Origin: Candidatus Fimivivens sp.
GTDB taxonomy: Bacteria > Patescibacteriota > Minisyncoccia > Moranbacterales > UBA1568
Assembly (NCBI GenBank): GCA_035560715.1
Contig: DATMYW010000030.1
Location: 1-52,901 of the forward strand
Direction: 5' to 3'
DNA length: 52,901 nucleotides
The notes beneath the pieces were generated by a model. The model was not told where the DNA came from. It did no database searches and saw only the letters and a list, made by a program, of their open reading frames with translations. The first letter of the stretch is position 1. Every line of letters starts with the position of its first letter. A program made the position numbers and the translations under genes. Shown piece after piece: positions 29,351 to 45,429 of this stretch.

Positions 29351-29486
29351 ATACCCCCCGTCCGTTTGGTTAACGAGCCACTCCCTTCATCCGACATTTT
29401 TGAAAACCGATGCTACCACGCCACTCACTCCCCGTCAACCGTTTGTACCGAATGACTTGCGGAAGCAGTGTTGCCTGCCCGCCTTT

Positions 29487-29537
29487 GGAGGGTACCTGCT
29501 CCGAAACGGTTTTTCTCGCTGCCAGGCCGGATACGTG
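29487..29537 (+). repeat. degenerate fragment of the hairpin element family (A0)
   Basis: Shares an exact 19-mer CCTGCTCCGAAACGGTTTT (plus CTC after one extra T) with copy A1, followed by GCCAGGCCGGATACGTG resembling A1 GCCAAACCGGATATGTA. Confidence 0.6.
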
Positions 29538-32222: not shown

Positions 32223-32713
32223 GAAATAATACTCCTCACGAAATTCACAAAGTAGTCTTTCAAGTTAATCACTATCCGTAACACTACGTCACTATGCTCG
32301 ATAATCAAAACAAAAGCAGCGACAAAAAGAATCAGCAATGACTTTTCCCCGAGAAAACTTATCAGTCTTTTCACTTGTATCAAACAATTGGGAAATACTT
32401 TCCTATAATATCCGGATCTGTATACATCTCTCATTAAAATAATTCCCACAAAAAAACCAAAAGAAGCAATCGCATACAGGGCTAATAACCCGGCATCATG
32501 ATCAGTAACACCTGTTTCTTTCTTGCTAAACGCTACTATCCCATACAAAGAAAACAGTAATATCAAGGTTATTCTCGATATAGGAGCCTTATTTAACTCT
32601 GAGGCAGCCTTGTCAAAATTATCTTTCACAAGATCATAAGGAACTCCCGAAGTCGAGGCTTCGGGCTGTTTTTCTGTCTGTTTAACTATCTTATAGTCAA
32701 TGCTTGTAGACAT
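32219..32713 (-). CDS. AT-rich gene for a three-TM membrane protein
   Basis: 164-aa ORF. Its stop overlaps the methyltransferase start (ATGA at 32222..32219). Local G+C is about 32-42% by hand count. Confidence 0.7.
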   Translation of the reverse strand: MSTSIDYKIVKQTEKQPEASTSGVPYDLVKDNFDKAASELNKAPISRITLILLFSLYGIVAFSKKETGVTDHDAGLLALYAIASFGFFVGIILMRDVYRSGYYRKVFPNCLIQVKRLISFLGEKSLLILFVAAFVLIIEHSDVVLRIVINLKDYFVNFVRSIIS

Positions 32714-32725
32714 AAAAATACCAGA

Positions 32726-33127
32726 CTAACTCACTTTCACAATAATAGGAATCTCCTCGATTTTCTCACCATTAATCTCTATATCTACAGCATAATTTCC
32801 TGAGACTTCGAATTTCGTATCGTTGAGTTGCAATATCATCCCTAGATCTACGCTTCCAGTAGGACTTTTCTCGACACCAGCAATAACAGGAGGCAAATCA
32901 AGAATAACCCCGCCGGTGTCCTTATTCACTAAACTTATCTTCTGGGTATACTGCTTCTCGCTTGGAACGCTTATATTTGTCACAACAAACATCTGTCGAT
33001 GTACTGGGACTTCATCTCCAGACTTCTGTAAATTTATATTTTTGAAAACTCCGATTACATTTAACTTCCCCGCATCACCTGTAAATGCATAGTCGCAAAC
33101 CAAGGCGATATTAACTTTGTACTCCAT
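32726..33127 (-). CDS. AT-rich gene for a small beta-rich hypothetical protein
   Basis: 133-aa ORF, 10 nt after the protease stop and 12 nt before the next gene. Confidence 0.7.
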   Translation of the reverse strand: MEYKVNIALVCDYAFTGDAGKLNVIGVFKNINLQKSGDEVPVHRQMFVVTNISVPSEKQYTQKISLVNKDTGGVILDLPPVIAGVEKSPTGSVDLGMILQLNDTKFEVSGNYAVDIEINGEKIEEIPIIVKVS

Positions 33128-33137
33128 AATATTTTTC

Positions 33138-34163
33138 TTACTTCCACCCCTGATTGACGATACGGAACGAGACCTGCTCCTGCTGGACGTTCACGATCCC
33201 CTGCGGGGTCTGCTGCGGGACGACCTGCTGGGTCTTCTTGAACTCCATACGGATCTCGAACCGGTTCGATTTTTCCGCGCTTTCAATTGCTGCGATCACA
33301 TAGTCTTTCTTGTTCTCAGCGCGGAACTCGCCACACTCGGCCTCGGGACTCCACTGCCCGTGGAGAACCATCTCGTCGCGATACGACTCGTAGAGCGAGG
33401 TGAGGAGCGTCGCGAGTTCTCCCTCGGCATACGAGACTGTCTTTATGCCAAGGTCTTCCTTGGCCTCGCGCCGACCGATGACATACTGGTGAGAGTAGAG
33501 TTTCTCGGTCAGGGTATCGATGATGCCGTCGATCGCCTTCTCGTCGAGCTTGGTCTGATGGCTGCCGAGGAGTCGCTTGGCGAGCAGTCGGATAAGCTTA
33601 TACGTGCGGTTCACATTGCCGAGTGCGAGTGGATGCACCGACGGCGTGCTATCGGCAAGCTTGTTGAAGATCTTGGTCAGTTCCTCGTCGCCCTTGATGC
33701 CGACACCTTCTTTCGCAAGGTCGAAGTACGCCATCACCTCCTCGACCGAAATCGGGATCCTGGCCTGCGGGTTCTGCGGATCGGCCGGATTGAAGACGTT
33801 CGCCGTCGAAGGGTCGATCGGGGTCAGCTCGCCCATGTCCGTCATCACGATCTCATCGGCGCCGAGCGCGATCATCGTCGCGGCGCTGTGCGCCTTGTAC
33901 GGCACGAGGACCGAAAAGGTATCGCAGTATTCGCGGATCATGGAGACGAGTCGCCATGGCACCATCGTGTCCCCACCCGCGCTGAACAGGACGAGATCGA
34001 TCTTCGGCACCTTGCCGATCGTGCGGAGCTGCTCACTCATCAGAGGAATCACGTCCATCGCGATCTTGGCACTCACCGGGCCCTGCCGGTCACTCGTCAC
34101 ATACGTAATCACCTTCGACCCTCGGGCCGATTCGATTTTTTTGAAAAGTTCGCTGCGTTCCAT
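33138..34163 (-). CDS. SDH-family Clp-fold serine protease
   Basis: VITYVTSDRQG, LVLFSAGGD, VPYKAHSAATMIALGADEIVM. Start moved to ATG 34163 because the ORF extension to 34319 runs through repeat A1. Confidence 0.75.
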   Translation of the reverse strand: MERSELFKKIESARGSKVITYVTSDRQGPVSAKIAMDVIPLMSEQLRTIGKVPKIDLVLFSAGGDTMVPWRLVSMIREYCDTFSVLVPYKAHSAATMIALGADEIVMTDMGELTPIDPSTANVFNPADPQNPQARIPISVEEVMAYFDLAKEGVGIKGDEELTKIFNKLADSTPSVHPLALGNVNRTYKLIRLLAKRLLGSHQTKLDEKAIDGIIDTLTEKLYSHQYVIGRREAKEDLGIKTVSYAEGELATLLTSLYESYRDEMVLHGQWSPEAECGEFRAENKKDYVIAAIESAEKSNRFEIRMEFKKTQQVVPQQTPQGIVNVQQEQVSFRIVNQGWK

Positions 34164-34194
34164 ATTTTTGGTTCGAATGTATTTCAACACCGTC

Positions 34195-34223
34195 ATCATA
34201 CACCCGAAAAACCCTTTTGTAAA
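34195..34223 (-). promoter_or_regulatory. promoter of the protease operon
   Basis: Minus strand TTTACA, 17 nt, TATGAT. Confidence 0.55.
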
Positions 34224-34268
34224 GCCTTCAAGCATCGCTACATGTCGATTACCTCCCCCACGAAACAC

Positions 34269-34431
34269 TTTGCAGGAGCAGGGTAGTCCCTGCTCCGAAA
34301 CGGTTTTCTCCCTTGCCAAGCCGCAGCCTTGGCGAAGGCTGGTTTGCCAAACCGGATATGTAACATCGATCGTAAACCATGTGGTTCAGGGTGCCCTCCA
34401 CGGGCGGGCAGGCAATCCTGAACCTGCGAGA
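34269..34431 (+). repeat. MITE-like hairpin element, copy A1 (163 nt)
   Basis: 5' hairpin GGAGCAGGG-TAGT-CCCTGCTCC, central GCCAAGCC...GGCTGG hairpin, 3' hairpin GGTTCAGG-N26-CCTGAACC, ends CTGCGAG. Confidence 0.85.
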
Positions 34432-34474
34432 AAACTACGAGAAGTATCCCTCATCCAAGCCTTTCCCCTGACGA

Positions 34475-34503
34475 TTGACTTATTTTCAAAAAAATGTTAT
34501 TTT
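34475..34503 (+). promoter_or_regulatory. cassette 1 promoter
   Basis: Box CTCATCCAAGCCTTTCC at 34450, then TTGACT, 17 nt, TATTTT. Confidence 0.5.
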
Positions 34504-34567
34504 TTCCAGTCGGTCAGCAGATCATTTCCAACAAACAAACGAGGCAAAACGCCGAAGGATCACCAAC

Positions 34568-35182
34568 ATGAACATCTATGAAATACTCGGATTAAAACTC
34601 CCTGTTCGGAATCGTTTCTCGTATATAAAGATGAGCGGGCCAATGAAGGTACTCGCCAGATACGAGACATCCAACGCATACGGCTTCGTAGTCCAAGAAG
34701 GCGTCCAAAGAAACATCATCGACATCCGGATTCCGAAAGATCTCGTGAAAGAACCAGTGGGAACGATCGACATGATCACGGTTACCTGGGAAAAGGATCA
34801 CGCCTTCATAGCGCCGCTTCAAAATTCCGACGCAAGGGAAGCTGATTATGGCAAACCGTTCTACCTTGATGGACCCCTTCAGGGTATGGCCGTACGATGC
34901 TTCACGATGCGAAACGATCACAGCGCCCCGCATGTGGCAGTTCCGATAGGCCAGCCACTTCCTCTCCTGTCCGCTTTCGAAGACGCCGGAGATCGACTCG
35001 TACTGATCAAAATGGATGACAACGGGCACGCGATCAAGAAAATGTCTCCGCTGACGGAATACAGCACAACCCCATGGGAAGAAATTCTCCTGAATCCATC
35101 GGGGTTTCGACTCCAGGTAGACGAAAGGTACGATACCGAAAACAAGGCCTTCCGTTTTTCCGAAAAACTTTCCAAAGAATGA
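34568..35182 (+). CDS. hypothetical protein (cassette 1)
   Basis: In-frame ATG 34568 (MNIYEILG...) with GAAGGA 9 nt upstream. The ORF-track start 34475 is the TTG of the -35 box. Confidence 0.65.
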   Translation: MNIYEILGLKLPVRNRFSYIKMSGPMKVLARYETSNAYGFVVQEGVQRNIIDIRIPKDLVKEPVGTIDMITVTWEKDHAFIAPLQNSDAREADYGKPFYLDGPLQGMAVRCFTMRNDHSAPHVAVPIGQPLPLLSAFEDAGDRLVLIKMDDNGHAIKKMSPLTEYSTTPWEEILLNPSGFRLQVDERYDTENKAFRFSEKLSKE

Positions 35183-35206
35183 ATCTTCCTCGGACACACG
35201 GTTCAG

Positions 35207-35252
35207 GGACGTTCTCTCGCATGTTAAGGCGAGGAACGTCCTTTATTATTTT
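35207..35252 (+). terminator. cassette 1 terminator
   Basis: GGACGTTCTCTCGC-N8-GCGAGGAACGTCC followed by TTTATTATTTT. Confidence 0.65.
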
Positions 35253-35444
35253 CAGCGAGCAAAAAACCACATGCGCGATATTTCATTGCATGAGATTTCT
35301 CGTGTAATGTGATCCATCCGTCATCGTCCGCATGAATATGCCGCGCACATAATCGTTTGTGCGATTCATTGCGTCATTTCCAAAGAGCGGATACTCGCGA
35401 CAAAACGCGCAAACTCTCACCTCATCCAAGCCCTTTCCGAACCG

Positions 35445-35473
35445 TTGACAGGAAATTAGTTCTTTGCTATAAT
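35445..35473 (+). promoter_or_regulatory. cassette 2 promoter
   Basis: Box CTCATCCAAGCCCTTTCCGA at 35421, then TTGACA, 17 nt (GGAAATTAGTTCTTTGC), TATAAT. Confidence 0.7.
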
Positions 35474-35506
35474 ATGTCGTTATCAGTGAGTTGTTTTACA
35501 ATGGTT

Positions 35507-35552
35507 GGTCATAGCCAAAAAAAGTTCATCCGGACTCTTTCTGGCTATGACC
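35507..35552 (+). promoter_or_regulatory. long perfect hairpin in the cassette 2 leader
   Basis: GGTCATAGCCA-N24-TGGCTATGACC, no following T-run, inside the 150-nt leader. Confidence 0.5.
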
Positions 35553-35623
35553 AAGAAAAAAGGTCTTAGTTCCGCCTCGGATGAGAGGAAACACAACCGC
35601 GCGACTGAGCGCAGGAGGCAATT

Positions 35624-36334
35624 ATGTCAGACAATATAAGAGATCCGTTCTATATCTCGAGAGTCTATCCAGGCGAATTAAACGCCCTGGTAAAGCACAT
35701 GATGCAACAGATGGGAACCAATGATCCGAATGAGGCGGTGAAGGGCATCAATAGCGGTGCGTATGCCGTTACAAAGGCACTCCCGTATTCCAAAGCCGAT
35801 GGTGTGCTCGCCATCGAACTCAGGTCGGATGGAACGACTGGGCCCGAGTGGATTCGTAAATGGAGAATGCGCGGCTACAAAGTCCCTGACAGGATACAAG
35901 AGCGTCTGTTGTCGCCTTCGTTCGAACCGACAAATGGCGTTACGTATCGCGTCGTGATTGTCTCCGAATCTGCGATTCTCATAAATCTGGGTACATGGAA
36001 CTCGACCTCGTCGGAGATCGGTTTCTCGGAAATTCTTGAGGAGGCCGGCAGGCGGAATCTCTCGATGATTGAGAACGAGGAAATCCCCTTCCTTCTCATG
36101 GAACGATTCACGAAAGGCCAGTACGAAAAAATGGGGTTTAAAGACATTGTCGTTCCTACACTGATCCCGGGTCCAATACCGACGATAAATGACCAGGAAG
36201 CTCAGTCATACGCGACATATCTGGAAACCTTCTACTACTTCGGTCGATTTTCACGGATCGAGGCGCTCGAATCAGCGATCTTCCAAAGAAATAGTGCTCG
36301 CGGCTATGCGCTCATCGAACGCAGCGAGTCATGA
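35624..36334 (+). CDS. hypothetical protein (cassette 2)
   Basis: 236-aa ORF. AGGAGG lies 6 nt before the ATG. Confidence 0.7.
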   Translation: MSDNIRDPFYISRVYPGELNALVKHMMQQMGTNDPNEAVKGINSGAYAVTKALPYSKADGVLAIELRSDGTTGPEWIRKWRMRGYKVPDRIQERLLSPSFEPTNGVTYRVVIVSESAILINLGTWNSTSSEIGFSEILEEAGRRNLSMIENEEIPFLLMERFTKGQYEKMGFKDIVVPTLIPGPIPTINDQEAQSYATYLETFYYFGRFSRIEALESAIFQRNSARGYALIERSES

Positions 36335-36355
36335 TCAGGATACGATGAGACACAG

Positions 36356-36383
36356 AAAAAGGGATCTCCAACGAGGTCCCTTT
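36356..36383 (+). terminator. cassette 2 terminator
   Basis: AAAAA-GGGATC-N8-GGTCCC-TTT, then stub CTCATTTCTCATCCAAC. Confidence 0.55.
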
Positions 36384-36400
36384 CTCATTTCTCATCCAAC

Positions 36401-36545
36401 TTTTGCAGGAGCAGGGTAGTCCCTGCTCCACACAGTTGTTCTCCCTTGCCAAGCCGTAGCCGTGGCGAAGGCTGGCGTGCCAAGCCGAATTCATAATATC
36501 GATCGTAAACCGCATGGTTCAGGGTGCAACCCTGAACCTGCGAGA
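36401..36545 (+). repeat. MITE-like hairpin element, copy A2 (145 nt)
   Basis: Same three-hairpin layout. 3' hairpin GGTTCAGGGT-GCA-ACCCTGAACC. Confidence 0.85.
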
Positions 36546-36560
36546 GGATACTCCCGCTCG

Positions 36561-36589
36561 TTGACACCCCCCTCCGGACCTGGTACGCT
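36561..36589 (+). promoter_or_regulatory. cassette 3 promoter (P2 type)
   Basis: TTGACA, 17 nt, TACGCT. A TACAAT at 36605 is an alternative -10. Confidence 0.45.
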
Positions 36590-36654
36590 GCCGAGAAGTG
36601 CTTTTTACAATCCGCATCAATCACCCGAAACCCTCTTAACGCGAAGGAGGCACC

Positions 36655-37095
36655 ATGCCACAAAACCTCATGAAAATTCAGATGTACGTTCCTGAAGGGT
36701 TCTCGACGATCAAGTCCGCACTCGATCGGTCGTTCGAGAAAGCCGGGTATCGGCTCGAAATGTGTACCGCCGAGGCGAAACCGCCATCGACCGATCCAAT
36801 AACGCTCGCGGTTCGGATGATCCCCGACGATTTCGGAGCGATTGCCGCCGGCCTCGCAATCATCGTTTCAGAAGAACCGGGCGGGCGGACGAAACTGGAC
36901 TGTGGGCTCGCGATACGAAAATACGACGATAATACGCATCGGGTGAATGCCCAGTTCGGTAATTTCTCTGTTGCCACCACATCGGACGAAATCGCTGGCC
37001 ATCGCATCTATGGCGGGGCATACGTCACGAAACTTGAGAAGGATCTGGACGCACTCATCCAGCAAATCCTGCCGCGGCGCCCCGTTCGCGCGTAA
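36655..37095 (+). CDS. hypothetical protein (cassette 3)
   Basis: 146-aa ORF. AAGGAGG lies 5 nt before the ATG. Confidence 0.7.
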   Translation: MPQNLMKIQMYVPEGFSTIKSALDRSFEKAGYRLEMCTAEAKPPSTDPITLAVRMIPDDFGAIAAGLAIIVSEEPGGRTKLDCGLAIRKYDDNTHRVNAQFGNFSVATTSDEIAGHRIYGGAYVTKLEKDLDALIQQILPRRPVRA

Positions 37096-37119
37096 CGACT
37101 GAAAAAAATACCCGATTAC

Positions 37120-37152
37120 CCGGCATGCGGCCCAACGCATGTCGGTTTTTTT
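37120..37152 (+). terminator. cassette 3 terminator
   Basis: CCGGCATGCG-N6-CGCATGTCGG followed by TTTTTTT. Confidence 0.8.
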
Positions 37153-37173
37153 GCCAAAAATCGATTCCCTTCG

Positions 37174-37202
37174 TTGACGCCCCCTTCCGGACCTGGTACG
37201 CT
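37174..37202 (+). promoter_or_regulatory. cassette 4 promoter (P2 type)
   Basis: TTGACG, 17 nt, TACGCT. Near-duplicate of 36561..36589 and its leader. Confidence 0.45.
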
Positions 37203-37268
37203 GCCAAGAAGTACTTTTTACAATCCGCATCAATCACCCGAAACCTTTTCAAAACAAAGGAGCGTAAC

Positions 37269-38156
37269 ATGACCACGACCAAACCGACACCGATCCTCAT
37301 TTCCGGCCTGCCGGGAAAAATGGCTACCCTGGTAGCGCAGGCGCTCATCCGCGACAACCGCTACCTGGTCGTTCCACACGCACTCGTCGGTCTGGAAACC
37401 ACCGACCCCGAAATCTTTCTCGAGCTCCACGACAAGCTGGGGCCGATGACGCGAATACCGTTCGAAACCGTGTATGCGCCTGGCAGACCAAATTACCTCC
37501 AGGAGCTGAAGTCGCGATACCCGGGACTCATCATCGTGGACTATTCCGTCCCGTCGGCCGTGAATACGAACGCCGAGCTGTTCTGTGACGCCGGTATCCC
37601 CTTCGTCATGGGCACGACCGGCGGCGACCGCAAGGCTCTCCAACGCACCGTCGAGCGATCGGGGGTTCCGGCCGTCATCTCCCCGAACATGTCGCCGGCG
37701 ATCGTCCTCTTGCTCTCGATGTTCGAGTATGCCGCCATGACCTTCCCCGATGCGCTCAAGGACTTCTCGCTCGAGATCATCGAGAGCCACCAGGCTGGAA
37801 AGAAGGACAAGAGCGGAACCGCAAAAAAGATTGGGGAACTCTTCGGACAGCTCGGAGTCGACTATCGCGGCGAGGATTCGATCAACGCGATCAGAAACCG
37901 CATGGCACAGCTCGCCATGTGCATCCCGCCCGAATATCTCGACGGCCACGGCTGGCACACCTACCGTCTGATATCGCCGGATGGCAGCGTTATGCTCGAA
38001 TTCAGGCACAACGTCAACGGACGGCAGACCTATGTCGACGGGACGGTCCTCGCCCTCGTATTTCTCATGGAAAAGGTCCGGGAAGCCTGCCTCGGAGTGT
38101 TCACGAACGAACCGACTGATACCTACTTCACGATGATCGACGTCCTGAAAGGATGA
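37269..38156 (+). CDS. dapB: 4-hydroxy-tetrahydrodipicolinate reductase homologue (plant/long type), cassette 4
   Basis: In-frame ATG 37269 with AAGGAG upstream. N-terminal Rossmann ILISGLPGKMA, MGTTGG, catalytic-loop-like ESHQAGKKDKSGTA. Confidence 0.7.
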   Translation: MTTTKPTPILISGLPGKMATLVAQALIRDNRYLVVPHALVGLETTDPEIFLELHDKLGPMTRIPFETVYAPGRPNYLQELKSRYPGLIIVDYSVPSAVNTNAELFCDAGIPFVMGTTGGDRKALQRTVERSGVPAVISPNMSPAIVLLLSMFEYAAMTFPDALKDFSLEIIESHQAGKKDKSGTAKKIGELFGQLGVDYRGEDSINAIRNRMAQLAMCIPPEYLDGHGWHTYRLISPDGSVMLEFRHNVNGRQTYVDGTVLALVFLMEKVREACLGVFTNEPTDTYFTMIDVLKG

Positions 38157-38183
38157 CAACGCGAACCGAAACGACAACGAACG

Positions 38184-38214
38184 AAAGGGATTCCACCGAA
38201 ACGGAATCCCTTTT
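38184..38214 (+). terminator. cassette 4 terminator
   Basis: AAAGGGATTCC-N8-GGAATCCCTTTT. Confidence 0.8.
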
Positions 38215-38230
38215 CTATTTTTCCTCCAAC

Positions 38231-38419
38231 TTTTGCAGGAGCAGGGTTGTACCCTGCTCCGAAACGGTCGGTCTCCCTTGCCAAGCCGGAGCCTCGGCGA
38301 AGGCTGGCTTGCCAAGCCGCAGTCATGGCAAAGGCTGGCTTGCCAAGCCGAATATATGAAGTCGCTCGTAAACCGCGTGGTTCAGGGTGTAACCCTGAAC
38401 CTGCGAGAAACCTGCGAGA
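38231..38419 (+). repeat. MITE-like hairpin element, copy A3 (189 nt)
   Basis: Same layout. Internal 31-nt unit CTTGCCAAGCC..GGCTGG duplicated in tandem (38277..38307, 38308..38338). 11-nt AACCTGCGAGA duplicated at the 3' end. Confidence 0.85.
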
Positions 38420-38450
38420 ATTATCCCAAATCCAAGCCATTTCCGGACAG

Positions 38451-38479
38451 TTGACTGGAAAGCGATTCTTTGCTATAAT
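38451..38479 (+). promoter_or_regulatory. cassette 5 promoter (P1 type)
   Basis: TTGACT, 17 nt (GGAAAGCGATTCTTTGC), TATAAT. Confidence 0.75.
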
Positions 38480-38542
38480 ACACCGTTATAGTAGTCTTTA
38501 CACCACAAACCACCAACCAGGGCCCGGAAAACGGGGAAATCG

Positions 38543-38878
38543 ATGAAACAGATTGAAAGCCTCAAGGAATTCAAAGGGGGGAATTATTATTGTGTCATTA
38601 CTTTCGGTTGGACAGGCAGCGCCGAAGATCAGCAAACTTTCTTCGTCAGAACGGTAAAACAAACAGGGGGTCTCAGCATAACATACGATTCCGGAAAGAA
38701 GGCGGAACTTTCCCCGACGAACCTGAAAGAAGGTCTCGAATCCGGCGCCTATTACTCCTCCAGCAAGAGCGCCTTTCTTAAAGAGGTGAGATCCTTCCTC
38801 TCCAACATGAAAAGGACTCGAAAAAAGCGATCTCGAACAATACATGACTTCGAACAGTTTATTGCGACTCTTCCGTAA
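38543..38878 (+). CDS. hypothetical protein (cassette 5)
   Basis: 111-aa ORF behind the conserved leader. No signal peptide. Confidence 0.6.
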   Translation: MKQIESLKEFKGGNYYCVITFGWTGSAEDQQTFFVRTVKQTGGLSITYDSGKKAELSPTNLKEGLESGAYYSSSKSAFLKEVRSFLSNMKRTRKKRSRTIHDFEQFIATLP

Positions 38879-38916
38879 CAAGAGGAGGCTTAAAAAAGAC
38901 GGCCTTGATCGTATGC

Positions 38917-38946
38917 AAAGGAGCTCCATCCAACCGGAGCTCCTTT
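38917..38946. terminator. cassette 5 terminator
   Basis: AAAGGAGCTCC-N8-GGAGCTCCTTT. Confidence 0.8.
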
Positions 38947-38947
38947 C

Positions 38948-39007
38948 TCATTTCTCCTTCAACCCGAGCTTGTCGATTCTCGATCGGATACTGCCCGGCT
39001 GGCGCCC
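38948..39007 (-). pseudogene. fossil copy H3 of the helicase 3' end
   Basis: Minus-strand read GRQPGSIRSRIDKLGLKEK-stop versus helicase GRQPGSIRSRIEKLGLGEK-stop. Six synonymous and two non-synonymous codon differences. Confidence 0.8.
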
Positions 39008-39039
39008 GATCATCCCTCATCCAAGCCCTTTCCGGACGG

Positions 39040-39068
39040 TTGACTGGAAAGCGATTCTTTGCTATAAT
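39040..39068 (+). promoter_or_regulatory. cassette 6 promoter (P1 type)
   Basis: Box CTCATCCAAGCCCTTTCCGGA at 39016, then TTGACT, 17 nt (GGAAAGCGATTCTTTGC), TATAAT. Confidence 0.75.
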
Positions 39069-39130
39069 GCACCGTTATAGTAGTTTTTACACCACAAACC
39101 ACCAACCAGGGCCCGGCAACGGGTTTACTC

Positions 39131-39724
39131 ATGAATACACGATCCACGTTTCGCGGTTTTCTTATCGGATTCTTTCTTGTTTTTTTGGCCGCGTGCAGCC
39201 AGAAATCAAGCGAAAATCCAAGGGACATCGAGGAGCGGCTTAGGCAGGCTCCGCCGAAAACCTTCCTGATCGACGAAAAAGGGAATGTGACCAAAGTCGG
39301 CCACGTTGCCGCAGAAACGGACGAAATCACGTCCGTTAACACCGATGGGGCATTCGGCACTATGCCAATCCGGACGGCTACGGGAAGGATCGTCGAGATC
39401 GTCGTGCCCGATCACCAGAACTACGCCGCCTACGAGCGCATGTTCCCTGGCTTGCAATCACAGGACATCCTGAGAAAGGCAGGGCAAGGGGCGATCGCTC
39501 TCATGGCTGACGGTTCCGTCATGGTCATCGTCAATCCGACGTATGAGTATGGCATCGCGATGGTCTCGAAATCAATCGGAACGAGACAGACGCTCTCAAC
39601 CGATGACATCGTAGCTAAAGCGGTCAACATCGTCTCTCCGAAAACTCCAGGAAAGGCGCTCAACGGCTATGATGAGCTGTGTGCGACCTACGTCAGCGGT
39701 ACAAGATTGCGACCTCAGAAGTAA
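39131..39724 (+). CDS. lipoprotein L1 (cassette 6)
   Basis: Signal peptide MNTRSTFRGFLIGFFLVFLAAC with lipobox L-A-A-C (Cys22). Confidence 0.8.
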   Translation: MNTRSTFRGFLIGFFLVFLAACSQKSSENPRDIEERLRQAPPKTFLIDEKGNVTKVGHVAAETDEITSVNTDGAFGTMPIRTATGRIVEIVVPDHQNYAAYERMFPGLQSQDILRKAGQGAIALMADGSVMVIVNPTYEYGIAMVSKSIGTRQTLSTDDIVAKAVNIVSPKTPGKALNGYDELCATYVSGTRLRPQK

Positions 39725-39743
39725 CGAGGCCTCAACCAAAGAA

Positions 39744-39769
39744 AAAGGAGCTTCCAACGGAGCTCCTTT
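39744..39769. terminator. cassette 6 terminator
   Basis: AAAGGAGCT-N8-AGCTCCTTT. Confidence 0.75.
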
Positions 39770-39770
39770 C

Positions 39771-39827
39771 TCATTTCTCCCCCAACCCGAGCTTTTCAAT
39801 TCTCGAACGGATACTGCCCGGTTGGCG
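39771..39827 (-). pseudogene. fossil copy H2 of the helicase 3' end
   Basis: Minus-strand read RQPGSIRSRIEKLGLGEK-stop is identical to the helicase C-terminus, although 8 nucleotides differ. All eight changes are synonymous. Confidence 0.85.
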
Positions 39828-39874
39828 GACGAAAGACGGACGGACCTGATCCGACTGAACCCTTTCCGAAAGTC

Positions 39875-39903
39875 TTGACATACGGCACGAAATATACTAT
39901 CGT
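39875..39903 (+). promoter_or_regulatory. cassette 7 promoter
   Basis: TTGACA, 17 nt, TATCGT, preceded by the partial box CCCTTTCCGAA. Confidence 0.5.
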
Positions 39904-39961
39904 ATCGTGAAGCATCTTACCATCATTTTTCCCTAACCTCTGACCGAAACCGGAGACTCTC

Positions 39962-41056
39962 ATGAAACAAGCGGGACCAACCCAACCAGAAAGCGCCATC
40001 ACCGAACTCCAAAAACTGTTTGACGAAGCGTTTATCGCGTTTGAGAACCAGCCCATTACACCGGGAATAGCCAACCTCGGAGGTGCGGAAATCCCGACAC
40101 ATGTCGGAGGTATCGAAATACGGACGATTCAGCCGGGTGAAGACGGATACACGCTGGGAAATACGTATCTGACCCAGATCTGTAACCAGTTCCGGGAATG
40201 GAGTGCTGACGTACGTGAGGAATACCGGAGGCGGGGCGTGGCGCACGTCGCGATACTCCCGCTCTATATCATGCACGAATTCTTCCGGGCCACCGGAAAG
40301 ATCTCCCTACGTCCGACTGAGCGCGATATGATCATGCTCTCGAGACACTGGAAAAAACCGCTTCAGGAATCAGTGTATGATGCCATTGACACGACAGCGC
40401 ATATCATGGGCCTGGCATGTTCCATCGGATTGGCAGCGGGAGCCGGTTACTTGCTGTTCTGGCCCGGAGGACTGAAGGGAAACGTCGACTATTTCAACGC
40501 CCTTTTCCTGAACACGACCAAGGTGATCCTGACGATTGCCGTTGCCATCGGAATGATGTGGGCAACGAATCTGTTCCTCGGTTACATCGGAAAGAAGGCC
40601 GCGGTCAAACGATTCGTAGAACGGGTTTTCCGCTGGAGATTGGGACGTTTCATCCGAACGGAAAGTCGCTACGAAGTGTTTCGCACCGTTCTGGACAACA
40701 GTCGCTACTGCGACGAATCGGACGCCTATTACGAAACCATCGCGTTTCGTGATTATCCGGACGGATTGGAACGGACCCTGTTCGCCGCCGGACGGTCATA
40801 TGTCGCCGCGCATCCGGATGCCATCGGTATCGCAGGGACGTCATATGAACTGTCCATGATTGGATGGAAACAGCGTCGGCCGGAATTCGCGGAACCGACG
40901 GTATCGGGTCCATGCGTTCTCTTCTACCACGAGCGGGAACACGCGACTGACAAACGGCATTGCCCATATGGAATCGTACTCGGCACGATCGGTGAACTCT
41001 CAAAAGAAGATGCCGATATCTTCCGCGGGCTCTTGAACAATGAGCGTCTTGTCTGA
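39962..41056 (+). CDS. hypothetical two-TM membrane protein (cassette 7)
   Basis: 364-aa ORF. GGAG lies 6 nt before the ATG. Central hydrophobic helices IMGLACSIGLAAGAGYLLFW and VILTIAVAIGMMWATNLFLGYI. Confidence 0.7.
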   Translation: MKQAGPTQPESAITELQKLFDEAFIAFENQPITPGIANLGGAEIPTHVGGIEIRTIQPGEDGYTLGNTYLTQICNQFREWSADVREEYRRRGVAHVAILPLYIMHEFFRATGKISLRPTERDMIMLSRHWKKPLQESVYDAIDTTAHIMGLACSIGLAAGAGYLLFWPGGLKGNVDYFNALFLNTTKVILTIAVAIGMMWATNLFLGYIGKKAAVKRFVERVFRWRLGRFIRTESRYEVFRTVLDNSRYCDESDAYYETIAFRDYPDGLERTLFAAGRSYVAAHPDAIGIAGTSYELSMIGWKQRRPEFAEPTVSGPCVLFYHEREHATDKRHCPYGIVLGTIGELSKEDADIFRGLLNNERLV

Positions 41057-41069
41057 ACGAGACCGAACA

Positions 41070-41105
41070 AAAACCCGACGCGTGCAGCCGCGCCCGTCGG
41101 GTTTT
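41070..41105 (+). terminator. cassette 7 terminator
   Basis: AAAACCCGACG-N14-CGTCGGGTTTT. Confidence 0.85.
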
Positions 41106-41135
41106 ATTCTCCTCATCCAAGCCATTTCCGGACGG

Positions 41136-41164
41136 TTGACTGGAAAGCGTTTCTTTGCTATAAG
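41136..41164 (+). promoter_or_regulatory. cassette 8 promoter (P1 type)
   Basis: Box CTCATCCAAGCCATTTCCGGA at 41112, then TTGACT, 17 nt (GGAAAGCGTTTCTTTGC), TATAAG. Confidence 0.7.
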
Positions 41165-41224
41165 ACATCTTTATCAGTGCCTTACCATTTCAACTCAAAC
41201 AAGGTCCCGGCAACGGGTTTACTC

Positions 41225-41806
41225 ATGAATACACGATCCACGTTTCGCGGTTTTCTTATCGGCATCGCGCTCATTTTCCTCGCCGCATGCGGCCAGAAAA
41301 CCGAAACGAATCCGCCGGAGGTCGCGAGGCAAAAGGCCGAGGAGATCCGAAGCGCGACTCCGACGACCTTCGTAAGAAGTTTCGCGGATCACATCGTAAG
41401 GATCACGAACATCGACAAGGACACGTTCACCGCGATCGAGCCCGACGGCACGTTCCGAACTTACGCGATTTCGGCGGCAGCAAAAACGGTCGACGAGATC
41501 ATAAAGCCGGACGACCCGAACTACGCCGACTACGTGCATATGTTCCAAAACGAATCCGTCATCGCGGCGATACACAACGCGGGTCAGTACGCCTTCATCG
41601 TTGCCAAGGATGGGACGATCGGTCAAATAGTCAATAACCCCGCCCCCGCCGCACTCACCGCCAACGTCCGCTGGCATCAGGGAGCAATGATTGTAAAAAT
41701 GGAGATTTCCTCGATCGCCACACGACTTATCGACGTCGTTCCGACAAGTGACATTAGGTACAACACCTTTGCCGGAAAGTACTGCCGCGAAGAAAAGGCG
41801 AAGTGA
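41225..41806 (+). CDS. lipoprotein L2 (cassette 8)
   Basis: In-frame ATG 41225. MNTRSTFRGFLIGIALIFLAAC lipobox (Cys22). The first 38 nt of the CDS are identical to L1. Confidence 0.8.
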   Translation: MNTRSTFRGFLIGIALIFLAACGQKTETNPPEVARQKAEEIRSATPTTFVRSFADHIVRITNIDKDTFTAIEPDGTFRTYAISAAAKTVDEIIKPDDPNYADYVHMFQNESVIAAIHNAGQYAFIVAKDGTIGQIVNNPAPAALTANVRWHQGAMIVKMEISSIATRLIDVVPTSDIRYNTFAGKYCREEKAK

Positions 41807-41824
41807 TTGTCGGCGCGCAACAAA

Positions 41825-41850
41825 AAAGGAGCTTCCAACGGAGCTCCTTT
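41825..41850. terminator. cassette 8 terminator
   Basis: AAAGGAGCT-N8-AGCTCCTTT. Confidence 0.75.
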
Positions 41851-41911
41851 CTCATTTCTCCCCCAACCCGAGCTTCTCGATCCGCGAACGGATGCTGCCA
41901 GGCTGACGGCC
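41839..41911. repeat. 73-bp perfect direct repeat, left copy (contains pseudo 3' end H1, 41852..41911)
   Basis: Identical base for base to 42730..42802 (offset 891). Covers half the terminator plus the stop and last 19 codons of the helicase. Confidence 0.9.
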
Positions 41912-41990
41912 AAAGGGAAATATCGTCCCTCCTCCAAGCCATTTTCAAACCATTTCACAAGGAAATGATAATGTCCCCATTTTCGAACCA

Positions 41991-42019
41991 TTGACGAGGT
42001 AGCTATTTCCTGCTATAAT
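41991..42019 (+). promoter_or_regulatory. cassette 9 promoter
   Basis: TTGACG, 17 nt, TATAAT. Confidence 0.7.
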
Positions 42020-42078
42020 AGACCGTCGCAGTAGTCTTACCAATAACTCTCAACCAGGGCCTGGAAACGGGTTTTATC

Positions 42079-42693
42079 ATGCACACATATTCCACGCTTC
42101 GCCACATCCTCGTCGGATTCTTTCTCGTTTTCCTCGCCGCATGCACGGAGATGACCAATCCGCAGGATGTCGCAACGGAATTCCAGAATAAACTAAAGGA
42201 GGCCCCGATCGGATCCTATGTGATCACCAATTACGGAACATGCCTAAGAATAGAGTCGCGATCTTCCGACCGTGATAGCCTGTATGTCTTTACCGGACGC
42301 GGCTCGATGAGTAAACTCGGGATCACTGCTCTTTCCTACGAGTCCAAAAAACTACTCCTCCCAGGGGAAGAAGGGTATGCGGCTCAGGACAGGAGTTTCC
42401 GCGATATTACTCAAGAATCCCGGATATTAAATGCGCCAAAAGGCACCCTCCTTCTCCGGAAGAATATCTCCAACGGAAGAACGGAAGTCGGTATGATAAT
42501 GGCATCCACCGGCTGCCCCGGTGTCGTGAATGTCTGTTGGAAAAATGGCTCGCAGGCAGAATCTGAACAAGTATTCACGCTTACCAAAACGATCACCTCT
42601 ATCATCACTCCCTCCGAACAGGACTATAAAACGTACATGCTCTTGTTCAATAATGGGAAAGTCTTCCATCCGGAAGGATTCAGAAAAGGCTGA
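42079..42693 (+). CDS. lipoprotein L3 (cassette 9)
   Basis: MHTYSTLRHILVGFFLVFLAAC lipobox (Cys22), behind the conserved leader. Confidence 0.8.
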   Translation: MHTYSTLRHILVGFFLVFLAACTEMTNPQDVATEFQNKLKEAPIGSYVITNYGTCLRIESRSSDRDSLYVFTGRGSMSKLGITALSYESKKLLLPGEEGYAAQDRSFRDITQESRILNAPKGTLLLRKNISNGRTEVGMIMASTGCPGVVNVCWKNGSQAESEQVFTLTKTITSIITPSEQDYKTYMLLFNNGKVFHPEGFRKG

Positions 42694-42713
42694 AATCGAC
42701 GAGGTATGAAAAT

Positions 42714-42741
42714 AGGAGCTCCATCCAATCGGAGCTCCTTT
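42714..42741. terminator. bidirectional terminator shared by L3 and the helicase
   Basis: AGGAGCTCC-N8-GGAGCTCCT followed by TT. Confidence 0.75.
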
Positions 42742-42802
42742 CTCATTTCTCCCCCAACCCGAGCTTCTCGATCCGCGAACGGATGCTGCCAGGCTGACGG
42801 CC
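42730..42802. repeat. 73-bp perfect direct repeat, right copy (functional helicase 3' end)
   Basis: See 41839..41911. Confidence 0.9.
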
Positions 42803-44383
42803 GAGGGTGTGCGAGATCGATTTGATATCGGCCCCTCCCTGGACAAGCCTTCGGAGCCACTTGTCCTCGTCTTCCTTCCACGGCGTATACGCCTTCGGGA
42901 ATGTCTTCCGTATCTCGTCATAATGACCGGGGCCGGCGGTTTTGGGAGTCGGACTCCCGCTTGGGAGTCGGACTCCCTTTTTCACTTCTTTTCTCCCCTT
43001 CGTCTTCTGCTTACCCATTTTTCCCTTTCCCCCTTGCCACGTAGGAGCCTTGGCGGAGGAGGGCTGCACCCCGCAGATGATCAAAAACCCTTCCTCATCT
43101 TTCCGGATCTCGTCTTCGCTCCGTGAGCCGTACGATGTCGCGGCCGACTCGCTCGCCTCGCGAAAGAGGAGGTCGCGCTCGCGCACCGCCGGGTGCGTGA
43201 GGAACGCGCGGTCGGAGAGTCCGACGAGCGAAAGCCCCGCGAGGGTGCGCACGCGGGAGAGCGCCACATATCCCTGCCCGTATTCGAACACGCGAGACAG
43301 GTCCATGACCGCCGCATCGAGCGAGGTTCCCTGACTCTTGTGGATCGTCATCGCCCACGCGAGCCGCAACGGGATCTGCCGGATCCGCGCCACGATCTCC
43401 TCCCCTTCCTCGACCGCCCATTCGGCAGGAGCGACCGTCACCGTGTCACCGTCGCGGGTGCGGACAATCGGGAATTTCTTGGTCGCATCGAACCCGATGA
43501 CCGTGCCGAGCGTCCCGTTCACGTATCCTTCCTCGGCATTGTTCTTGGTGAACATGACCGAGGCGCCCTCCTTGAGTTCGAGCTTCTCGGGCGAAAGGCA
43601 CCCGCGGATGAGCGAGGCGAGCGGTCCCTCGGGTCCCCGCGTCGCCATACGGAAGACGACTGCCTTCCCGGGAAGCCGGTCGAGCGCGGCCGCATTGATC
43701 CCGTCCACGTCGGTATTGTGCGAGAAAAGCACCGGCAGGTCCTCGTCCGGCACATCATCGGGTCCCAGGAGGCACTTGCGAACGAGTTCGAGGTGCGTCT
43801 CGCCGAATTCGTCACGGCGGATCGCGGAGAGTATCTCGAGGAATGCCGGGTCTTCCTGACGGTGCTGCTCATGCAGATAGCAGACGACCGGATCGAGCGC
43901 GGCCCACGCGGACGACTCGAACGCGAACTGGGCCGCCCCATCGCGCGACACCGGCGGCAGCTGGAAGAAGTCGCCGACGAGCACGACCTGGATCCCGCCA
44001 AAGGGAAGCGTCGTTCCCTTGGCGTGCCGGCACACCCGCTCCACAAGCGAAAGTGTCCGCGCATCGAGCATCGAGATCTCGTCGATTACGAGGACGTTCG
44101 TCTCGCGAATCCGACGCAGGGCCGCACGGTTCTTCACGAGACGGCGGAATCCCTCGTCGTCGAGCTCGCGGTTCGCACCGATCCCGCTCCACGAGTGGAT
44201 GGTCATCCCGTGGATATGCGTGGCCGCGATTCCGGTCGAGGCCGTCACCGCGTACGCGATACCCCGGGAACGAAGGTATTCCGCATATCGGTTCACGACA
44301 TGCGTCTTGCCGGCACCCGCCTCCCCCGTGAGGAAAACGTTCGCGCCGGTCTTGAGTATGGATAGCGCCTGGTCCTGGGTCAT
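42743..44383 (-). CDS. PIF1/RecD-like ATP-dependent DNA helicase with a C-terminal Myb/HTH-like tail
   Basis: Walker A GEAGAGKTH, VLVIDEISM, VLVGDFFQLPPV, TIHKSQG. Tail YTPWKEDEDKWL...LGRQPGSIRSRIEKLGL. Confidence 0.88.
   Translation of the reverse strand: MTQDQALSILKTGANVFLTGEAGAGKTHVVNRYAEYLRSRGIAYAVTASTGIAATHIHGMTIHSWSGIGANRELDDEGFRRLVKNRAALRRIRETNVLVIDEISMLDARTLSLVERVCRHAKGTTLPFGGIQVVLVGDFFQLPPVSRDGAAQFAFESSAWAALDPVVCYLHEQHRQEDPAFLEILSAIRRDEFGETHLELVRKCLLGPDDVPDEDLPVLFSHNTDVDGINAAALDRLPGKAVVFRMATRGPEGPLASLIRGCLSPEKLELKEGASVMFTKNNAEEGYVNGTLGTVIGFDATKKFPIVRTRDGDTVTVAPAEWAVEEGEEIVARIRQIPLRLAWAMTIHKSQGTSLDAAVMDLSRVFEYGQGYVALSRVRTLAGLSLVGLSDRAFLTHPAVRERDLLFREASESAATSYGSRSEDEIRKDEEGFLIICGVQPSSAKAPTWQGGKGKMGKQKTKGRKEVKKGVRLPSGSPTPKTAGPGHYDEIRKTFPKAYTPWKEDEDKWLRRLVQGGADIKSISHTLGRQPGSIRSRIEKLGLGEK
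42942..42977. repeat. tandem 17-mers, each holding a 15-nt palindrome, inside the helicase CDS
   Basis: TTGGGAGTCGGACTCCC at 42942..42958 and 42961..42977. Core GGGAGTCGGACT also forms the half-site of the 32-nt intergenic palindromes. Confidence 0.85.
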
Positions 44384-44424
44384 ATTCGTTTCCTTATCCT
44401 ATCATCCGACAGACAAAACTGAAA

Positions 44425-44461
44425 CAAAAAAAGACTTGGGAACGGTTATCCCCAGGTCTTT
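44425..44461 (-). terminator. terminator after 44472..45053
   Basis: Minus strand AAAGACCTGGG-N10-CCCAAGTCTTT followed by TTTTT. Confidence 0.7.
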
Positions 44462-44471
44462 GGCGAAAAGC

Positions 44472-45053
44472 TCACATCCGCCTAAGCACATCGCGCACGC
44501 GATAGGCGGCATACCGCTCAGAAACGAGGTACGCTCCGATCGTGCACGCCAACACGATCAACGTGATAACATGCCCGCCGGGAATCAGCGCAAGAAAAAG
44601 CACGACAAACCCGACCGATACCGACGTCCATTCCGCCCATGAACACTCGAAGTACCCGAAGGCGGACGTGATGGCCGCCCAGGACGGTTTGTCTCGTCTC
44701 GCCCGTGTCACCGACTGCACGGACAGGACCGACAGGACGGCGATAAAGAATACCCAGACCAAAAGCACCGCGCCTTCCTCCAGCCGGCCGACGGACTTGG
44801 CAATAAACCCTATATGTGCCAGGAGCCGATACCCGACGTCCGGCTTCGAAACGAGCGCCGAGAGACCAAATGAGACGGCGAGAAAAAGACCGTACGACAG
44901 CATCTTTTCAGTTCCCGTCTCCCTCTCATATGGGTCCTCTTCCGACCCGAGTCGTCCTTCCACGAATCGTTCCGCGCTATCGGACAGACCGAATCTGATT
45001 TTTATATCGGAAATCAGATCCCGTTCATATCGCATAAGATGCCGTATCATCAT
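44472..45053 (-). CDS. hypothetical multi-TM membrane protein
   Basis: 193-aa ORF. AAGGAGGG lies 1-2 nt (unusually close) before the ATG. Confidence 0.65.
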   Translation of the reverse strand: MMIRHLMRYERDLISDIKIRFGLSDSAERFVEGRLGSEEDPYERETGTEKMLSYGLFLAVSFGLSALVSKPDVGYRLLAHIGFIAKSVGRLEEGAVLLVWVFFIAVLSVLSVQSVTRARRDKPSWAAITSAFGYFECSWAEWTSVSVGFVVLFLALIPGGHVITLIVLACTIGAYLVSERYAAYRVRDVLRRM

Positions 45054-45429
45054 ACCCTCCTTGTTTTCCGTTGTAAAAAAGCAATCGCCTCACGATGGTA
45101 CAGTCAACGGTTCATGGCGTCAACTTCGTTCGGAAAAAATGACCGCTCCGTCCCGTTTTCCGATTTCAGCGAAAAATCGAGGCCTGAATAAGCCTCATTT
45201 CCGGTCGGTTTCAAAGTTCGGGACAGGACCGAATTTCAGGAACGGATGCATGAGACGCTTCCGGAAGCCTCCGCCCCGTACTACCAGAGTACGAAATATG
45301 GTCGTACTCCGATACCGGTTGTCATATCCCCATATCAAACGGTACACCAACTGACGACCGCATTATTATGTTACATTATTCTTTCAGGATTTCAGCAGAG
45401 CAGTAAGGACGGTCTCGCTCCCGTAATAC

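Follow-up and report, generated by a model that had tools for sequence, protein, structure and literature searches.

A polar array of stacked gene cassettes at the 3' end of a helicase gene in Candidatus Moraniibacteriota

The 52,901-nt stretch of DNA analysed here (the window, below) is a chromosomal segment of Candidatus Moraniibacteriota, a lineage of the Patescibacteria or candidate phyla radiation (CPR). It carries an array of nine plus-strand genes (34568-42693) bounded by two minus-strand genes, one for a ClpP/SDH-type protease and one for a PIF1-like helicase. The gene content of this interval varies among related genomes, functional 3' ends of the helicase gene lie displaced inside it, their state changes in one direction along the array, and the repeats at its junctions have recombined with one another. 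We interpret the array as a cassette island that grew by polar addition, through general recombination on portable homology, and we put the probability of this reading at about 0.45. General recombination is the most likely mechanism, with a trans-acting site-specific system as its serious rival. A first-pass annotation, made from the letters alone, had taken the locus for a hotspot of cassette accretion or exchange, and this agrees with an interval whose content and order vary among related genomes.

The order in which the array grew can be read from partial copies (stubs) of the helicase 3' end. The gene for this PIF1-like SF1B helicase, which has a C-terminal helix-turn-helix tail (42743-44383, minus strand; Pfam PIF1, E 4.9e-33), is the conserved right anchor of the array, and its last ~62 nt (42743-42804) are the segment duplicated as stubs. 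Three long stubs lie on the plus strand of the window, each preceded by a terminator hairpin: a native-type hairpin with the oldest long stub (38917-39010, stub at 38948), a short-loop hairpin with a stub of foreign allele type (39744-39833, stub at 39771), and a short-loop hairpin with the youngest stub, a mosaic whose 62 nt equal the live end (41825-41914, stub at 41852). Two more long stubs are present in the related locus L001. Short stubs of 16-20 nt (at 36385 and 38215) follow GGGAT-type terminators, with a 16-nt helicase tail in the first (TCATTTCTCATCCAAC; 36358-36400, plus strand) and a decayed 16-nt tail in the second (CTATTTTTCCTCCAAC; 38183-38230, plus strand). The terminator/helicase-tail 21-mer GGAGCTCCTTTCTCATTTCTC occurs exactly four times (38936, 39759, 41840 and 42731; 0 expected), and the terminator-plus-tail family of ~97 nt lies at 38914, 39737, 41818 and 42709. 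The helicase-tail copies had been noticed in the first-pass annotation, and three full copies and two stubs hold up; a further supposed relic, the 8-mer CGGATACT at 35388, is no more than chance would give. The short stubs are not the plain junction stubs described there, but are joined to an overlooked repeat (U, below) resembling a repetitive extragenic palindromic (REP) sequence or a miniature inverted-repeat transposable element (MITE).

The five long stubs share one endpoint to within a few nt, the Leu codon of LGRQPGS at ~62 nt from the stop, and what follows differs in each of the five; the short stubs break elsewhere, at ~20 nt. A copy left to decay in place is expected to gather mostly non-synonymous changes. 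The stub at 39771 differs from its own live gene end by 8 nt, all synonymous (7 synonymous and 0 non-synonymous codons; 0/20000 random trials were as good), whereas the live ends of L083 and L003 are just 2-3 nt away. Against the respective live ends, 5 synonymous and 2 non-synonymous codons were counted at 38948 (21/20000 trials as good), 4 and 0 in the second stub of L001 (81/20000), and 4 and 2 in the first (167/20000). Because these changes are nearly all synonymous and match alleles of other lineages, the diverged stubs are displaced functional gene ends and not products of decay in place. They are either replaced former ends of the window's own lineage or arrivals that came with cassettes from other lineages. 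With rising distance from the helicase, the stubs pass from identical (41852) through synonymously diverged (39771) and amino-acid-changing (38948) to truncated and decayed (38215 and 36385), and this gradient points to addition at the helicase end. When 76 helicase loci, more distant ones included, were screened for stubs, only the window and L001 had them (2/76).

The interval was compared with ten related loci (labelled L001, L003-L006, L081-L083, L169 and L170), with the relatives' flanks covered to +/-10 kb. Between helicase and protease stand 0, 1, 3 or 9 genes, and the cargo differs between genomes. The interval is empty in L005 and L082, where 57 nt hold only the native terminator T; it holds a single g5-like gene in L004, under the same promoter module as g5 in the window, and a single g8-like lipoprotein gene in L170 (the window's genes are numbered g1 to g9 from left to right). 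Read in the direction of the window, L001 has a g9-like lipoprotein gene, a stub, a DapB-like gene, a second stub and a BRO-N gene on the helicase strand. The cargo adjacent to the helicase is another lipoprotein paralogue in L003 and in L006, g5-like in L081, DapB-like in L083 and g2-like in L169, where a full terminator and helicase tail lie directly 3' of the gene; a further relative, L002, is without the protease. The DapB-like and g9-like genes stand in reversed order in L001 and the window, and cargo types common to the window and a relative are about as diverged as the flanking genes. This alignment had been suggested in the first-pass annotation, which held that the same genes in the same order throughout would speak against a hotspot; such constancy was not seen.

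The conserved left anchor is the ClpP/SDH-type serine protease gene (33138-34163, minus strand; Pfam SDH_protease, E 3.8e-15; NCBIfam Clp_like_SDH), whose true start, from comparison with L004 and L005, is MERSEL at 34163. L001, L004, L005 and L082 have orthologues of it (82-92% identity) on the downstream side of the helicase. At the empty site (L005 8800-8860; L082 4958-5015) the protease start codon is only ~20 nt past the helicase terminator hairpin. A protease upstream region of ~90 nt, present in the window, L001 and L004, is missing there, so the empty state may be a deletion derivative and not the ancestral one. The BRO-N gene of L001 (11679-12527; phrog_15286, E 3e-88) is 43-48% identical to genes of IMG/VR viral contigs. 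It lies on the helicase strand between the live helicase end and a stub, without the usual terminator, and its position indicates that a phage-type gene entered the same site.

Recombination among the repeats has left traces inside the array. The copy at 41818-41914 is a mosaic that joins a hairpin of the 39744 type to a tail of the live type. Among the three lipoprotein genes, the 66 nt encoding the signal peptide (39131-39196 in g6, 41225-41290 in g8 and 42079-42144 in g9) are 83% (g6-g8), 73% (g6-g9) and 71% (g8-g9) identical within the genome and 61-62% identical to those of orthologues. For the mature parts, nucleotide identity is 69% between g8 and its L170 counterpart and 68% between g9 and that of L001, as against 53-56% within the genome. 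The signal-peptide DNA thus groups by genome and the mature parts by orthologue, which argues for gene conversion or recombination at the 5' module. Along the helicase gene itself, no recent recombination tract was detected against nine relatives, at noisy identities of 60-90% and with coverage up to near the 3' end.

This 5' module is the second repeated component of the junctions. In its full form, the box-promoter-leader (BPL) module of ~120 nt starts sharply at CCTCATCCAAGCC whatever its left neighbour and ends, in the leader, with a CCCG-GAAA-CGGG hairpin. Plus-strand copies precede g5 (38423-38542, 93% identical to the g6 module), g6 (39012-39130), g8 (41108-41224, TTGACT-17-TATAAG) and, as a variant with a 38-nt internal duplication, g9 (41915-42078); the g5 type also drives the g5-like genes of L004 and L081. 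The box is found four times against 0 expected (35421, 38427, 39016 and 41112), with variants at 34450 and 41929, and the promoter TTGAC-N10-TTNTTTGCTATAAT five times against 0.02 expected (35445, 38451, 39040, 41136 and 41991), so that both the repeated box and the nearly invariant spacer of the first-pass annotation are borne out. The box contains a TTTCCGGA palindrome, triplicated in L004, and an operator role for the box is no less likely than one as a recombination site.

That each gene has its own promoter and a conserved leader was claimed too broadly. Promoter-like sites precede all nine genes, but near-consensus extended -10 promoters only g2, g5, g6, g8 and g9, and the conserved leader belongs to g5, g6, g8 and g9 and not to the other five genes. 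Upstream of g2 (35417-35623, plus strand), the box and a consensus promoter (35445-35473) are fused to a hairpin-containing leader of its own; the L169 homologue has this leader with a different promoter in place of the box and promoter. The sites of g1 and g7 are weaker. In front of g1 stand a degenerate box, a promoter-like site (TTGACT-17-TATTTT, 34475-34503) and a leader (34447-34567, plus strand), and g7 has its own promoter (TTGACA-17-TATCGT, 39875-39903) and leader (39834-39961, plus strand). The 17-nt spacer of the g1 site has a run of seven A followed by T-rich sequence; slippage in this run could alter the spacer length, and phase variation is hence possible. Before g3 and g4 lies a different promoter/leader, P'L', in two plus-strand copies (36558-36654, with TTGACA-17-TACGCT and a GGAGG Shine-Dalgarno sequence, and 37171-37268) that form a 92-nt direct repeat of 89% identity (36558-36649 and 37171-37262); a related promoter precedes the DapB-like gene of L001.

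Hairpin terminators follow all nine genes, as had been proposed, with the GGGAT-type variants at 36358 and 38183. The native bidirectional terminator T (42714-42739) is a hairpin common to the helicase gene and g9. It also lies 3' of the helicase gene in L003-L006, L081 and L082, the empty site included, and L083 has the GGGAT-type hairpin as the terminator of its live helicase gene. Across the terminator variants the stems covary (GGAGCTCC, GGGATCyC and GAGGCTCT), and 9 of 11 retain the CCAAC loop. The junction modules are confined to the array interval in the window and to the equivalent locus in about 90 kb of relatives. They are therefore not the genome-wide promoter and terminator consensus that the first-pass annotation had named as the other possible explanation.

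If general recombination built the array, units of one or two genes would be added beside the helicase, each closed by the hairpin that terminates the helicase gene and by the final ~62 nt of the helicase open reading frame (ORF). Because the incoming unit carries this tail, the helicase would retain a working 3' end while the earlier working end would be displaced inwards as a dead stub. Most units are under the shared box/promoter/leader module of ~120 nt; since this module probably holds an operator, the stacked genes are likely co-regulated. Joining may be by RecA, acting on DNA imported via ComEC-type natural transformation or on sister copies, with the terminator-plus-tail module and the promoter/leader module (plus signal peptide) as portable homology arms; a cassette-specific integrase would not be required. 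We infer both the joining enzyme and the route of DNA entry, and the following observations are consistent with them. No mobility gene was found at the locus, and ComEC (3037-4515) and RecA (21146-22180) are encoded in the window. Competence is known from another lineage, the Saccharibacteria, in which ComEC-dependent natural transformation with homologous insertion was demonstrated experimentally for Patescibacteria (PMC10633639).

Several points count against general recombination. The ~62-nt boundary of the five long stubs is fixed despite five different neighbours, which fits general recombination only if there was a single founding junction, and which a site-specific cut would explain directly. 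Stacking, unlike replacement, needs at least one illegitimate or circle-integration step, hypothetical here. The homology arms are only 60-120 nt long and have diverged by 10-25%, and no near-identical transfer was seen between the sampled lineages. In favour of general recombination, the first-pass annotation had reported no integrase, transposase or recombinase, and domain searches agree: none was found in the 49 window ORFs across 52.9 kb. Nor was a recombinase found within +/-10 kb in L001-L006 and L081-L083, and none is among the frequent Pfam families of the 148 ORFs that follow 80 more distant helicase homologues on the downstream side. The searched sequence amounts to 53 kb of this genome and, in the relatives, to +/-10 kb, which leaves room for a recombinase elsewhere.

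Such an enzyme is the basis of the main competing account, a tentative one that we think less probable, in which the array arose by site-specific tandem accretion. The attachment site would be the final ~62 nt of the helicase gene, and small circles of cargo, terminator and a spare helicase tail would integrate at its inner boundary through a recombinase encoded elsewhere or by a helper phage or element, each integration displacing earlier units inwards. Five stubs in two genomes with one boundary and five different neighbours are what it predicts, as are incoming units that carry their own functional tail, and a polar decay of stubs is likewise seen in successive tycheposon-island integrations (bioRxiv 10.1101/2020.12.28.424599). 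The phage-family BRO-N gene of L001, in opposite orientation, also implies that unrelated cargo used the same point. It is a weakness of this account that neither the window nor the flanks of the relatives yielded an integrase or excisionase, and that none was common among ORFs downstream of related helicases. On its cassette side the junction is without conserved sequence, so that no second half-site can be recognised, the two short stubs break at another position (~20 nt), and the g3/g4 promoter duplication and the signal-peptide conversion are unrelated to the helicase-tail site. Among 2.9 million viral contigs none had the helicase-tail pattern, and scans of viral contigs with the leader, g7 and g2 found nothing.

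Further accounts place the signal in the hairpin. An integron-like cassette system native to CPR, integrase-less or served in trans, is unlikely. Every cassette in it would come ready for expression, with operator/promoter/leader, ORF and terminator hairpin. Its mobility signal would be the hairpin with its TCCAAC loop together with the last 62 nt of the helicase gene, and an enzyme reading single-stranded or transforming DNA would excise cassettes and re-insert them at the 3' end of the helicase gene; the adjacent helicase might itself be involved. We give about the same low weight, or slightly less, to a hairpin-guided single-strand mechanism of integron-, IS200/IS605- or IS91-like logic, an intriguing minority reading. 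It would take as signals the TCCAAC terminator loop and a second TCCAA(C/G) 20 nt downstream, with the box as a relic of the signal. The conserved CCAAC loop on covarying stems speaks for it, and so does the distribution of TCCAA(C/G): the plus strand of the window has 27 copies, 19 of them in the array and 13 in the 2.7 kb of junctions, and the minus strand of the array has 2. These sites fall in the terminator loops, at the exact ~20-nt break of the short stubs and in the box core (for example at 36367, 36395, 38225, 38929, 39020, 39753, 41116, 41834 and 41933). The box can also be aligned to a short stub or to the 3' arm of the hairpin, at p-values that are modest and uncorrected; a descent of the box/-35 region from a decayed helicase tail or terminator is a lead at most. 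The enrichment of TCCAA(C/G) is largely a by-product of the repeated modules, and the recurrence may reflect shared module descent or a recombination signal. The loop could be conserved for its role in terminating the helicase mRNA, the 62-nt boundary is not beside a TCCAAC, and no HUH, Y1 or IntI-like protein was found in the regions searched.

Purely local evolution, in which an ancestral array was tandemly duplicated, diverged in place and was differentially lost with no horizontal input, is quite improbable. It would account for the paralogy of g6, g8 and g9, for the duplicated promoter/leader modules, and for shared cargo types about as diverged as the flanking genes. Neutral decay in place would not yield synonymously diverged stubs that match other lineages' alleles, and the gene orders of L001 and the window conflict. 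Six of the nine genes are without a paralogue, four have a GC content of 46-50%, and g7 is without any homologue.

Independent assemblies bear on the reality of the junctions. Logan contigs from runs SRR7629281 and SRR7629282 are 100% identical to and colinear with 32420-36630, 37216-38526, 39765-41235 and 42737-45372, stretches that include stub/U, U/promoter, stub/g7 and g7/g8 junctions (stub to g7 in contig L162); because the assemblies agree, several junctions are not artefacts of one assembly. An assembly chimera, in which strain variants of a one-cassette locus were joined through shared repeats, is very improbable: repeats of 60-120 nt are near assembler k-mer sizes and relatives' contigs often stop at the locus (L003, L005, L006, L081 and L083), but the unique junction sequences (stub to promoter, stub to U) must come from real molecules, contigs of two runs match four stretches at 100% identity with the stub/U/BPL and stub/g7/g8 junctions among them, and the independent metagenome-assembled genome (MAG) of L001 has the same architecture with two stubs.

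All nine plus-strand ORFs of the first-pass annotation exist (starts 34568, 35624, 36655, 37269, 38543, 39131, 39962, 41225 and 42079), and codon-usage scores are highest in the annotated frame of each. The description of their products as unrelated was overstated: g6, g8 and g9 are paralogous, and g2, g4, g5 and g9 have orthologues at the same locus elsewhere. The orphan g1 (34568-35182, plus strand; 204 aa, 50% GC) has a hairpin terminator read from the sequence at 35207-35253 and no match in Pfam, PHROG, PADLOC or NCBIfam; the order protease-g1-g2 is reproduced by Logan contig L173. The single known homologue of g2 (35624-36334, plus strand; 236 aa) is that of L169, at 75% identity. A second orphan, g3 (36655-37095, plus strand; 146 aa), has a terminator at 37120-37152 and no family match. 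The DapB-like g4 (37269-38156, plus strand) resembles plant-type dihydrodipicolinate reductase (Pfam DapB_N and DapB_C; TIGR02130, E 3e-70) and has orthologues of 70-71% identity in L001 and L083; the L083 one is directly adjacent to the helicase gene. The 111-aa product of g5 (38543-38878, plus strand) has homologues of 25-26% identity in the same slot of L004 and L081. For g7 (39962-41056, plus strand), an orphan protein of 364 aa with two transmembrane segments and its own terminator (an inverted repeat, 41070-41105), no homologue was found among 5.8e9 proteins.

The three lipoprotein paralogues are g6 (39131-39724, plus strand; lipobox LAAC), g8 (41225-41806, plus strand), whose orthologue in L170 (52% identity) adjoins the protease, and g9 (42079-42693, plus strand), whose L001 orthologue (54% identity) adjoins the protease instead. 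Their pairwise identities are 41/28/23%, the other six cargo genes have no paralogue, and the family has about ten members among 1.84 billion proteins, all restricted to the clade. An AlphaFold2 model of g8 (predicted local distance difference test score 83) predicts two small beta-barrels in tandem and had no significant match in the PDB. Exact-protein look-ups of g5, g6, g8 and g9 returned no record, the PADLOC and PHROG libraries gave no defence or phage match for any cargo gene, and Rfam and tRNA scans found no known RNA within the array. GC content is 46-50% in g1, g2, g5 and g9 against about 58% for the genome.

The U repeat of ~170-190 nt stands at 3 of the 9 junctions, in plus-strand copies U1 (34255-34446), U2 (36401-36556) and U3 (38231-38422), and the short stubs at 36385 and 38215 are joined to it. 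It behaves like an element of the REP, bacterial interspersed mosaic element (BIME) or MITE type: it is short and non-coding, its ends carry inverted repeats (TTGCAGGAGCAGGGT and ACCCTGAACCTGCGA) and strong hairpins (z-scores -5.3 and -6.5, measured on copy 2), and it occurs both at scattered positions and in tandem clusters. A 19-nt insert is optional, and an internal unit of 31 nt can be repeated and is triplicated in U3. The U3 junction is reproduced by Logan contig L171. Outside the array there are a partial copy in the window (29470-29530), one at 13003-13159 in L004, one at another position in L005, and a tandem cluster in L082 (9530-10170). We considered U as an upstream region of the protease gene or as a decayed part of the helicase 3' end and rejected both, given its place downstream of the protease in L004 and its clusters elsewhere in L082. 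Neither a cognate RAYT nor a transposase was found in the window. Within the helicase gene, the low-complexity linker (43026-43059 and 42942-42977) has an in-frame stretch of 34 nt that is 82% identical to the U core, and such a stretch is also present within the helicases of L002, L003 and L006. The linker holds two tandem copies of the palindrome TTGGGAGTCGGACTCCC, and a related 32-nt palindrome occurs twice in the window, at 8995-9026 and 9568-9599; coding sequence has apparently taken up palindromic repeats.

In the surrounding region, rpoC and rpoB adjoin the helicase gene in the window (45485-49087 and 49116-52544) and in relatives, and the helicase homologues of highest identity (72-79%) all come from Moraniibacteriota MAGs. 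The longest-ORF call is misleading for the upstream neighbour of the helicase, where the real gene is at 44472-45053 (minus strand; 192-193 aa) and is also called in Logan contig L161. Left of 32.2 kb the real genes are on the minus strand (30993-31604, LysE-like in L001, and 31614-32222) and the overlapping plus-strand ORFs are spurious. FtsZ, HisRS, EF-P and FtsK are also encoded in the window, and the span from FtsK to the helicase is variable throughout (16.7 kb in the window and 2.7 kb in L002), with the part at 26.2-34.2 kb lying outside the array. Two genes at 32219-33127, an orphan and a DUF6941 gene of 36-39% GC, are missing from L001 and L004, which marks another point of insertion on the downstream side of the protease, occupied in L004 by a U element.

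CPR bacteria have tiny genomes and few classical mobile elements, and gene gain in them is poorly understood. They show ample gene exchange (PMC12455944). The locus is a compact record, readable from sequence, of repeated gene gain at one site, with displaced gene ends as time stamps. It is a gene-collecting hotspot with no integrase visible in the searched regions, and its reusable expression module would make a newcomer gene immediately expressible. If general recombination and competence suffice, this would be a simple route of pangenome growth in streamlined bacteria and a natural landing pad for engineering; a hidden site-specific enzyme would make it a new cassette-capture system, and the integron-like account would give streamlined episymbionts a private means to collect and swap surface and accessory genes. 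The clade-restricted lipoprotein cargo points to variation of the cell surface, which is relevant to episymbiont host attachment or phage resistance.

Several known systems resemble the array in part. Integrons also have a one-directional array of small, mostly single-gene and unrelated cassettes with one growing end and a 3' hairpin element. The array differs from them in having no IntI, attI or attC (R''/L''/L'/R'), and its repeated element is a piece of the neighbouring gene. No IntI-type recombinase (Phage_integrase or any recombinase domain) was found among the 49 ORFs of the 52.9 kb, and cassette 3' ends searched for attC cores (RYYYAAC...GTTRRRY) had no GTTRRRY partner, carrying intrinsic-terminator hairpins and helicase coding sequence instead. 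A common Pc promoter is also absent, since promoter-like sites and terminators belong to the individual cassettes. We therefore reject an integron as such, in agreement with the first-pass annotation.

Flexible genomic islands of aquatic bacteria, of additive and replacement types (PMC4033161), likewise have different genes at the same position in related strains and homologous recombination in conserved flanks; the array is much smaller, and its junctions are explicitly modular and traceable. The vlp/vsp lipoprotein families of Mycoplasma likewise consist of tandem genes in which the 5' untranslated and signal-peptide regions are highly conserved and the mature parts diverge, in organisms that are alike in their small genome and, probably, host attachment. 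The array differs in having no invertible element or obvious repeat-based switch, and only 3 of its 9 genes encode lipoproteins. Prophage morons are self-contained promoter-gene-terminator units too, often encode lipoproteins and lie beside an attachment site; at the array there is no prophage and no PHROG match in the cargo, and the only phage-like gene is BRO-N in the relative L001.

Closest are two groups, systems of tandem accretion at a gene 3' end and the minimal mobile elements of Neisseria. Integrative elements of the ICESt1/CIME arrays are reportedly stacked at the fda 3' end in Streptococcus thermophilus, and in these arrays, tRNA-gene islands and Prochlorococcus tycheposon islands units likewise stack at the 3' end of one conserved gene. 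Common to them and the array are a partial 3'-end copy in each unit, an incoming working end, and older units that are displaced and decay. In the window the target 3' end is directly repeated in three copies of 62 nt and two of ~16-20 nt besides the live end, and L001 has two stubs, with a constant crossover boundary in the long stubs and a different one (~20 nt) in the short stubs. An integrase, in a unit or in a helper element at the site, was not found in the regions searched. The array units are small (0.8-2 kb, one or two genes), with no integrase, replication or transfer genes in or near them. The target is a protein-coding helicase gene in CPR, the repeat includes the terminator, and most units share a promoter and leader.

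The minimal mobile elements of Neisseria (Saunders & Snyder 2002; Snyder et al. 2007), as presented where they are cited in PMC2649163, place varied whole-gene cassettes between the same two genes without a dedicated recombinase, and transformation and homologous recombination are invoked for them. Border elements with inverted repeats occur in both systems, Correia elements in Neisseria and U in the array. Conserved flanks enclose 0, 1, 3 or 9 genes here (L005/L082, L004, L001 and the window). In that same account the Neisseria cassettes are replaced and not stacked, and no displaced flank ends are described, whereas the flank is duplicated in the array, the cassettes are stacked with copies of the helicase tail, and homology lies inside the array as well as in its flanks. 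The array is thus unlike accretion islands in having single-gene, self-expressed units and no integrase, and unlike minimal mobile elements in stacking its cassettes.

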